31,580 bases of DNA from the IMG/VR virus record IMGVR_UViG_2700989363_000008, positions 1 to 31,580 of that record; one strand, written 5' to 3'. Each line of letters starts with the position of its first letter. Position 1 is the stretch's first letter. The notes below the pieces were generated by a model. That model made no database searches. It had not been told where the DNA came from and was given only the letters and a program-made list of their open reading frames with translations. A program made the position numbers and the translations under genes. The DNA comes from a virus. Taxonomy: Duplodnaviria; Heunggongvirae; Uroviricota; Caudoviricetes. This document shows positions 24,945 to 25,570 of the stretch, in pieces.

Positions 24945-25123
24945 CTTTCCTCTCCTGATTATCCGCTCGGATTATCGTAACACAATTTGAGAATAAGATA
25001 ACTAATAACGCGTTAACTTAGCCACAAACTAACAGAACACAATAACGGATAGTAAACAAAAACACAATATCGGAACGTTAAAAATTGTTCCTTGACTTTG
25101 TTCTGAAAATCAGCACATAATAC

Positions 25124-25147
25124 CCCATTATACGCGCGTATAATGGG
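25124..25147. other. telRL: telO-like telomere resolution palindrome CCCATTATACGCGCGTATAATGGG, core of a telRL/tos region
   Basis: 24-bp perfect palindrome with central CGCGCG, very close to the N15 telO core (CCATTATACGCGCGTATAATGG) as recalled. Flanks hold imperfect inverted copies of AACACAATA/TATTGTGTT. Confidence 0.75.
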
Positions 25148-25149
25148 AA

Positions 25150-25330
25150 ATTATGTTTCGCTATGTTCTTGATTAGTGTTTTCATTTGATGTAATGTTCT
25201 CAGTTTGCGTACTGTTTTATTTAACATTTGTTTTAATTCTTTATTTATGTTCTTTATTGTGTTTGTGTTATTACTTGTTTTTTATGTTCTTTATTTGTGT
25301 TCTTATGTTGGTAAGGTTGGGAGAACTAAT
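25150..25330. repeat. AT-rich iteron-like repeat array between telRL and sopA
   Basis: Degenerate repeats (T)TATGTTCTT(T)A and TTGTGTT, at least 4-5 each, in direct orientation; inverted partners left of telO. Confidence 0.6.
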
Positions 25331-25489
25331 AGAGAAAACGTATCTCATTGATGATTCTTATCATGTTTCTCTAGTTTTATATGATTTCCTTTCTTAAGAA
25401 AGGTAATAAATATCAATTAGTTATGATTATATTGTTGTTCGTTTTATGCATTTCGGGAGGGGAAAAAAAGATGATTTAGCTCAAATATT

Positions 25490-25570
25490 CGCCTTTGCGT
25501 TTTTCGTTTTACTTTGCCTTTTTCATGCAAATTTGCTAGAAATAAGCAAAGATTTAATTATTAAGCAAAG
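25490..25570. promoter_or_regulatory. sopA promoter/operator region with repeated CTTTGC motifs
   Basis: CTTTGC or its complement GCAAAG occurs about five times within 80 bp upstream of sopA; F-plasmid SopA autoregulates through CTTTGC repeats (recalled). Confidence 0.5.

Follow-up and report, generated by a model that had tools for sequence, protein, structure and literature searches.

What does the DNA between a protelomerase gene and a partition operon do, and what is the role of the repeats within it? We addressed this question in a 31,580-nucleotide stretch of viral DNA (IMG/VR record IMGVR_UViG_2700989363_000008; this whole stretch is called the window), where 647 bp of intergenic DNA (24945-25591) separate a divergent protelomerase gene, telN, and sopA. 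Our analysis indicates that this region is very probably the telomere resolution locus, with telRL lying in a tos-like region, of an N15-like phage-plasmid, and that it runs on into an autoregulated sopAB promoter (tos nomenclature after PMC12624138). The identity of the palindrome core, the gene context, the enrichment and orientation of the repeats, the conservation of their motif class and the end positions in relatives were established here, and they are described below before the possible roles of the repeats are weighed.

A probable N15-type telomere resolution site next to a protelomerase gene

Across the telN-sopA junction the window is 97-99 % identical to ~46-kb plasmids of Escherichia coli and E. 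albertii, and DNA related to the 647-bp intergenic region was found in 17 of 5426 complete E. coli genomes, plasmid-borne every time. Because of this identity and this plasmid-only occurrence, the window is assigned to an N15-like (Ravinvirus-type) E. coli phage-plasmid. An alignment-based scan of genome contigs gave seven loci, and the scan of viral contigs gave two.

The site itself is a 42-bp near-palindrome (telRL, 25115-25156, to which no strand is assigned) with its dyad at 25135/25136. Its centre, CCCATTATACGCGCGTATAATGGG (25124-25147), is a perfect 24-bp palindrome and the longest perfect palindrome of the window; by our own arithmetic about 0.002 such palindromes are expected in 31.6 kb. 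The 22-bp telO core, CCATTATACGCGCGTATAATGG, has a single and exact match in the window at 25125-25146, with 0 matches expected in shuffled sequences even when 3 mismatches are allowed, and it is identical in N15, phiKO2, MStein, KpLi5 and the related loci L007 and L009. The first-pass annotation had proposed a telRL-like palindrome with a perfect 24-bp core, and the telO identical to that of N15 and phiKO2, adjoining a protelomerase gene, bears this out. When the sites of N15, phiKO2 and PY54 were compared with it, the core proved to be shared with the first two, whereas that of PY54 (TACTACGCGCGTAGTA) differs.

Each arm (25115-25135; 25136-25156) has 21 nt, of which 19 (90 %) are symmetric, and the mismatches are at positions 13-14 only. 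Inverted outer arms complete each half-site, and the symmetric length equals that of the PY54 minimal site. Past position 21 the two sides differ, with AATCAGC on the left and TTCGCTA on the right: positions 22-28 are canonical on the left, and the right outer arm (25157-25163, plus strand) departs at four of the seven positions from the canonical GCTGATA that is found in N15, phiKO2 and some E. coli relatives. An alignment of seven relatives (A2) showed that the right outer arm exists in two variants among the E. coli relatives, and the TTCGCTA variant is common to the window, CP056845, CP148365, CP014491 and CP088562.

The arms had earlier been contrasted with a 56-bp perfect telRL in N15, and this contrast falls away, since the N15 record has 11 perfect nt per arm, then an asymmetric 3-bp spacer (AGT / GCA) and then 14 symmetric nt; imperfect arms are thus normal. 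The perfect half-arm measures 11 nt in N15, 12 nt in the window, 14 nt in phiKO2 and MStein, 16 nt in L007, 21 nt in CP056845, CP148365 and PY54, 25 nt in KpLi5, and 27 nt in L009 and CP151021. Arm positions 12-14 are freely variable in close relatives, where GT, AA, GA and GG were all found.

The adjoining gene (23031-24944, minus strand) encodes a protelomerase of the telN/telK type with 637 amino acids. Its open reading frame (ORF) matches four Pfam domains (TelK_N, muzzle, ResT/TelK catalytic and stirrup), well over cut-off in each case; over residues 1-536 the protein aligns to the TelK structure 2V6E with E = 2.5e-295, and R275, K300, H415 and Y424 do not vary across 13 aligned, diverse homologues. 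The site is accordingly flanked, as expected of an N15-type target, by a cognate protelomerase gene with its catalytic residues. The protein is 81 % identical to TelK and 83 % identical to an N15-type group of protelomerases with 631 amino acids, the length of N15 TelN; it differs from this group in its length and in a run of at least 8 Glu in its C-terminal part (window 23031-23330).

Several other properties are shared with the telRL/tos region of N15, namely the telN-telRL-sopA order, the asymmetric positions just beyond the core, the outward TATGTTC/TGTGTTC units on both sides, and the distance from the dyad to the telN ATG, which is 191 bp in the window and 192 bp in N15. Relatives of the N15 and phiKO2 types, as well as L011-L014, keep this distance at 190-194 bp, even where TelN identity falls to 55 %. 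Differences from N15 lie in the intergenic DNA as a whole, which is ~71 % identical, in the right outer arm (TTCGCTA against GCTGATA at positions 22-28) and in the number of TRTGTT motifs (7 + 3 here, 5 + 3 in N15). The phiKO2 telRL and TelK share with the window the telO core, the gene order and the four protelomerase domains.

A sigma-70-like sequence (TTGACT-18-CATAAT, 10 of 12 matches) was also observed at 25092-25121 on the plus strand, directed toward sop across telRL and with its -10 inside the left arm. It is probably a chance match, because such matches are no commoner in the region than in shuffled sequences.

Hairpin ends of relatives map to the same dyad

The placing of the site could have been undone by hairpin ends that map elsewhere, as the first-pass annotation recognised. 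End positions were therefore sought in relatives at 93-99 % identity, and their assemblies fold back or end at this dyad. CP088379 (CP088379.1, L005; 98.8 % identical on the telN side) contains an inverted duplication that has its exact centre at the dyad and is perfect over at least 1621 bp, and YDC107_1 (L016) contains a telN/telN fold-back that is perfect for 368 bp, after which the arms slip out of register; both are of the telL type. Fold-backs of the sop side (telR), with the same centre, are found in CP088562 (CP088562.1, L004), CP101203 (CP101203.1, L022) and CP014491 (CP014491.1, L024). The diverged right arm is present in the telR fold-backs of L004 and L024, which argues that this arm is processed in vivo. 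In addition, the PhiR46_1 record terminates in an annotated 'telR site', NZ_JBRAXZ010000005 stops at query position 191, that is window position 25135, and a further fold-back across a hairpin telomere was detected in L012 (CP114059.1). Fold-back assemblies are the expected product of long reads that run round a hairpin. As read from these assemblies, telL and telR lie at this dyad in vivo in the relatives, diverged arm included.

The verified fold-back records are 14.5-116.6 kb long (CP088562, 75.5 kb; CP014491, 62.6 kb; CP088379, 36.6 kb; CP101203, 14.5 kb; YDC107_1, 46.7 kb) and entered the public databases as phage genomes or complete circular plasmids, with the telomere junction unannotated. 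Many of the "circular complete" plasmids of 60-90 kb in this group have the appearance of a hairpin-ended molecule of 46 kb that was assembled as a fold-back; for the remaining long records the fold-back is hinted at by their length and multiple match places only.

A mosaic junction at telRL was considered, as the match left of the palindrome is to one phage (97 % identity) and the match right of it to another (81 %). It was rejected because YDC107_1 is a telL fold-back, so that its match simply stops at the palindrome, and because PhiR46_1 is again 92-98 % identical in sopA and sopB, only the non-coding array having diverged.

One contig end of Erwinia tasmaniensis (L011, positions 1-75) runs 19 nt past the hairpin dyad and continues as CTGTCTCTTATACACATCT, which is recognisable as a Nextera adapter sequence; this suggests that adapter remained in the assembly at the telomere end.

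Outward repeats on both sides of the palindrome

The direct repeats to the right of the palindrome, first reckoned as at least four, form a larger array than was claimed. On the sop side, the top strand carries 14 TGTT-core units between 25154 and 25364 and the opposite strand one. Thirteen of the outward units make up a tos repeat array at 25150-25312 (plus strand) with units of the TATGTTCT and TTGTGTTC types, and the 14th lies at 25358-25373 (plus strand); TTTGTTTT is another type within this series and ATGTGCTGAT a further form of the unit. TTATGTTCTTTATT occurs at 25245 and 25282, and TTGTGTT at 25257, 25263 and 25295. The description of an array restricted to the right of the palindrome needs amending, since five inverse-oriented units on the telN side (spanning 24982-25064) had been missed. 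These outward TGTT-core units belong to a block of tos repeats at 24972-25070 (minus strand), in which AACACAAT appears on the top strand at 24979, 25036 and 25061. Two inward-facing units, TTGTTCC and TTTGTTCTG (25083-25106, plus strand), abut the left arm, and the same pair is found at this position in N15, MStein and L009 (AGAACA..AGAACAAT in the outward reading).

Shuffles that preserve dinucleotides, made from the local T-rich strand itself, were used as the reference for motif counts. TRTGTT occurs seven times outward and never inward on the sop side, where the shuffle mean is 1.5 and none of 1000 shuffles reaches 7, and three times outward and never inward on the telN side, where one of 1000 shuffles reaches 3. 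Any other 200-bp stretch of the window has at most two TRTGTT per strand. To avoid circularity, the derivation of strand-biased 6-mers was confined to the flanks of six other telomere phages. The leading 6-mers there had outward to inward ratios of 33:1 (TTGTGT), 29:4 (TGTGTT), 20:0 (ATTGTG) and 14:2 (TATGTT), and in the window they appear in the outward orientation only.

The units are degenerate and irregularly spaced (6-19 bp), and they resemble the outer arm of the half-site (ATTRTGTGCTGAT). They cover about -160 to +180 bp around the dyad, a span that matches the tos fragment of N15 as bounded by the pJAZZ primers (~0.4 kb). The AT-rich setting described for them is confirmed by a GC content of 26-28 % over 25100-25400. 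In N15, telRL holds the L3/R3 motifs, with at least two degenerate copies (L1, L2, R1, R2) nearby, and the natural TelN target is given as 310 bp (PMC12624138). The degenerate arm-like repeats that flank telRL in the window are the counterpart of these copies; they are the local version of the N15 tos repeats, a known feature.

A small ORF within the sop-side array (25176-25397) was treated as non-coding: it has no Pfam match and a low-complexity, T-rich translation, and it is not kept as an ORF in PhiR46_1.

Conservation of the repeats in other telomere phages

The flanking repeats are TATGTTCC and TGTGTTCT in the N15 group and, in the phiKO2 group, GATTGTGTTATGAT rather than the TGTTCT type. 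L014 and L011 have repeats of the TGTTACGAT type, in the form of TTGTTACGAT in L014 and of the variants TGTGTTACGTT and GGTTACGTT in L011. The pal site of PY54 resembles the window site in having 21 symmetric nt per half-site and outward arm-like flanking repeats, with flanks that are active in vivo according to the literature; its repeat is however GGGTTAC, next to an arm that reads AGGTTAC, and four of the nine genomic copies of GGGTTAC lie within ~150 bp of the dyad. The motif class and the outward orientation on both sides of the dyad thus persist from 99 % to 55 % TelN identity.

The unit nearest to telN (24974-24988, minus strand; ATTGTGTTACGATAAT on the bottom strand, with (T)TGTGTTACGATAA) contains a -10-like TACGAT at 24979-24974. 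The equivalent place was compared in L001, L009, L011, L012, L014 and L019, and the unit is kept in N15, L009, L011, L012, L014 and PY54; in relatives with TelN identities as low as 55 % it sits ~30 nt ahead of the ATG. From its sequence we infer that it may serve as an extended -10 (TGnTACGAT) for telN, and it could be a telN promoter under the control of TelN.

A model for the site and its repeats

The steps that follow are drawn from the established N15/TelK model. After circularisation of the phage DNA, a dimer of the adjacent protelomerase would bind the two half-sites of 25115-25156 and cut both strands a few bp on each side of 25135/25136 by means of its catalytic tyrosine. For TelK the two cuts are 6 bp apart, and crystals were obtained with a site of ~44 bp. 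Each strand would then be rejoined to its own complement, giving two hairpins, telL by telN and telR by sopA. When the linear prophage replicates, each end would become a perfect LL or RR palindrome to be resolved by the same enzyme. The left-right asymmetry at positions 13-14 and 22-28 would be tolerated because each arm need only be a competent half-site for maintenance, and would matter at lysogenisation only.

Concerning the repeats, the outward units are predicted to load extra protelomerase on the ~170 bp beside each hairpin, a proposal that we consider somewhat better than even. Protelomerase bound there would aid processing in vivo, shield the ends from SbcCD, or both, and at the telN-adjacent unit it may also give autoregulation. 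Downstream, SopA dimers on five CTTTGC-type hexamers would repress sopAB. Previous work is in line with parts of this model: TelN stays on the hairpin product and blocks Mre11-Rad50 (SbcCD), and the authors of that study found it "conceivable" that the CTD1 (stirrup) domain binds all repeat motifs as a protective assembly (PMC12624138). When adjacent sequence is missing, the 42-bp palindrome of PY54 works only in part in vivo (PMC3540006). PY54 Tel and N15 TelN do not cross-protect each other's ends.

A number of observations weigh against this account. Even for N15, TelN binding to the flanking repeats has only been proposed, and CTD1, the proposed repeat binder, is dispensable for end protection (PMC12624138). 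The 56-bp telRL of N15 was reported to be sufficient by itself in vivo and in vitro, and phage P840 does not need its flanking inverted repeat (PMC10612081). Among seven close relatives, 67 % of the columns in the TGTT cores are invariant as against 61 % in the spacers (p = 0.6). Compared with PhiR46_1, the array reaches 78-82 % identity and sopA and sopB 92-98 %; the array diverges faster than these genes, and constraint on individual units is therefore weak. The dyad-to-ATG spacing of 190-194 bp is not universal, as the PY54 dyad lies ~140 bp from the annotated tel start, or ~174 bp from a downstream ATG that we infer to be the start. Finally, the end positions come from the records of relatives and not from the window's own molecule.

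Alternative roles for the repeats

The most serious rival to protelomerase loading is that the repeats are weakly constrained filler, or that they act through curvature or host proteins. Under this explanation they would have no sequence-specific protein partner, and would be either AT-rich DNA produced by slippage and duplication or DNA that works only by curvature, integration host factor (IHF) or H-NS. The faster evolution of the array than of the flanking genes, the TGTT cores that are no better conserved than the spacers, the irregular spacing of the units and the reported sufficiency of the N15 telRL alone all fit such an origin, and the sole IHF-consensus match of the window lies just downstream (25411-25423). 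Against it, the motif class and the outward orientation hold from 99 % down to 55 % TelN identity, the motif changes in PY54 along with the arm sequence, and the enrichment withstands dinucleotide-preserving shuffles of the T-rich strand. We regard this explanation as unlikely, although it has to be taken seriously.

A mainly transcriptional role, in which TelN or another regulator would use the repeats to tune the telN promoter and read-through into sopAB, appears improbable for the array as a whole. The unit nearest to telN does overlap TGnTACGAT 30 nt before the ATG, conserved across relatives, and the dyad-to-ATG distance is fixed in N15- and phiKO2-type relatives and in L011-L014. Most units, however, are found on the sop side; they contain no -10-like sequence, and more than 180 bp separate them from the sop operator downstream. 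A promoter scan found no excess of sigma-70-like sites in the region (two, against a mean of 3.5 in shuffles). A regulatory role for the single telN-proximal unit is plausible, and transcriptional control is compatible with protelomerase loading rather than exclusive of it.

More speculatively, the two telomeres may be built differently on purpose, the sop end having a diverged arm and ~14 units of fast turnover and the telN end a canonical arm and ~5 units. The arrays would then nucleate a looped, protelomerase-coated cap whose size is specific to each end, and protection from SbcCD, or the silencing of telomere-proximal promoters, would be end-specific as well. We give this extension of the loading model little chance of being correct.

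The first-pass annotation had left three possibilities for the repeats: accessory sites for the protelomerase, accessory sites for SopB, or a second replication or packaging element. Only the first agrees with units that are arm-like, point outward and, in PY54, track the arm. That the repeats are partition accessory sites or centromere sites for SopB is very improbable. They adjoin sopAB, and N15-type plasmids are without a sopC array beside the operon; yet the SopB sites of N15, four in number (IR1-4), are palindromes of the GTGCGACCNNGGTCGCAC type (PMC7205306), and the TGTT units are not palindromic and occur on the telN side too, mirrored about the dyad. A search for the GTGCGACCNNGGTCGCAC-type palindrome in 25030-25570 found none. 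Five matches to it exist elsewhere in the window (5703-5720, 5923-5940, 9025-9042, 14819-14836 and 17262-17279; three exact and two with one mismatch), where 0.05 are expected by chance. It is hardly credible that the repeats are a packaging site or the iterons of a second replication origin, despite the AT-rich DNA and its multiple direct repeats, as regular, identical iterons beside a rep gene are not what is found: the neighbours are telN and sopA, the replication gene is ~10 kb off among the features matched by query positions 944-13157, the spacing is irregular, the array is mirror-symmetric about the dyad, the motif cluster accompanies the dyad in all the relatives that were compared, and N15 has its origin inside repA and its cos site elsewhere.

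The SopA operator and the neighbouring DNA

Between the repeats and sopA lies the SopA (ParA) operator with the sop promoter (25493-25570, plus strand). Three hexamers are in direct orientation, CTTTGC at 25493 (#1) and 25512 (#2) and aTTTGC, with one mismatch, at 25531 (#3), and two are inverted GCAAAG partners at 25546-25551 (#2') and 25565-25570 (#4). Four exact CTTTGC copies thus occur in 78 bp, against ~0.07 expected locally and 27 copies in the window, and the five hexamers are invariant in the alignment of seven relatives. Direct hexamers and inverted partners just upstream of sopA are the mark of a type Ia ParA operator; this overlapping inverted-repeat architecture was demonstrated for F and noted for N15 and phiKO2 (PMC8465637), and the CTTTGC cluster, already suspected to be a sopA operator, follows the F/N15/phiKO2 pattern of motifs and intervals.

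Compared with the F plasmid sequence, the intervals here are 13, 13, 28 and 28 bp. The PparAB operator of F, likewise subject to type Ia ParA autoregulation, has the same three direct hexamers at 13-bp intervals. In the window the inverted partners are 28 bp away from #2 and #3, whereas F has 27 bp for #2-#2', and the distance from the operator end to the sopA ATG is 21 nt here and 22 nt in F. Furthermore, #3 is ATTTGC and #2' a perfect GCAAAG in the window, while F has a perfect #3 and a degenerate #2'.

The operator is followed by sopA (25592-26758, plus strand), which encodes a type Ia ParA ATPase of 388 amino acids (Pfam AAA_31 and CbiA) and is labelled SopA in 99 % identical plasmids, and by sopB (26758-27723, plus strand), which encodes a centromere-binding protein of 321 amino acids (Pfam SoPB_HTH). 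A small ORF at 25446-25601 overlaps the operator and has no Pfam match, and was treated as non-coding.

Of the non-coding DNA that separates the array from the operator, 25325-25399 is the block with the highest conservation, with 80-88 % invariant columns among seven relatives as against 44-76 % in the array. Inverted repeats (AGAGAAA..TTTCTCT) and a palindrome, CCTTTCTTAAGAAAGG (25388-25403), were observed in it. The RNA fold of 25322-25412 is not significant (z = -1.4) and has no Rfam match, and an Rfam search of 24800-25700 gave no match, save a chance snoRNA at E = 0.36. The sole match to the IHF consensus (WATCAANNNNTTR) in the 31.6-kb window, TATCAATTAGTTA at 25411-25423, lies between the repeats and the sopA operator and is retained as TATCAATTTGTTA in PhiR46_1.

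Other features of the window

Two further perfect palindromes with 11-nt arms were observed at 27728-27750 and 22231-22253. The first, TATCCCCTGCATTGCAGGGGATA, starts 5 nt past the sopB stop and looks like a terminator; the second, GGGTGTAACTTAAAGTTACACCC, is in the region left of telN. At ~28930-31200 the window is 78-84 % identical to the invertible tail-fibre segment of Mu, D108 and P2-like phages, with matches to tail-fibre and tail-fibre assembly genes and to a DNA invertase of the Gin/Hin type. This segment suggests host-range switching in an N15-like phage.

Significance for hairpin-telomere phage-plasmids

The site is an ordinary member of a well-studied kind, and the repeats and the operator are likewise known features; only the diverged right outer arm and the fast-evolving repeat array are mildly unusual. 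The analysis places telRL, tos-like repeats, the sop operator and the centromere sites for E. coli phage-plasmids that are common and poorly annotated. Of six relatives whose annotation across the junction was compared, three carry a telRL or telR feature (N15, phiKO2 and PhiR46_1) and three have none (CP056845, CP151021 and CP148365). The naturally diverged right outer arm is a free mutational data point on the tolerance of TelN.

Across the enterobacterial telomere phages that were compared (TelN identity 55-100 %), arm-like repeats pointing outward are a general feature, and they vary in sequence with the arm. The comparison gives background for the question whether hairpin telomeres are protected by a larger complex of the protelomerase. 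If the speculation about caps that differ between the two ends were true, such end-specific arrays would be a bacterial analogue of telomere-repeat and shelterin loading, evolving by repeat turnover.

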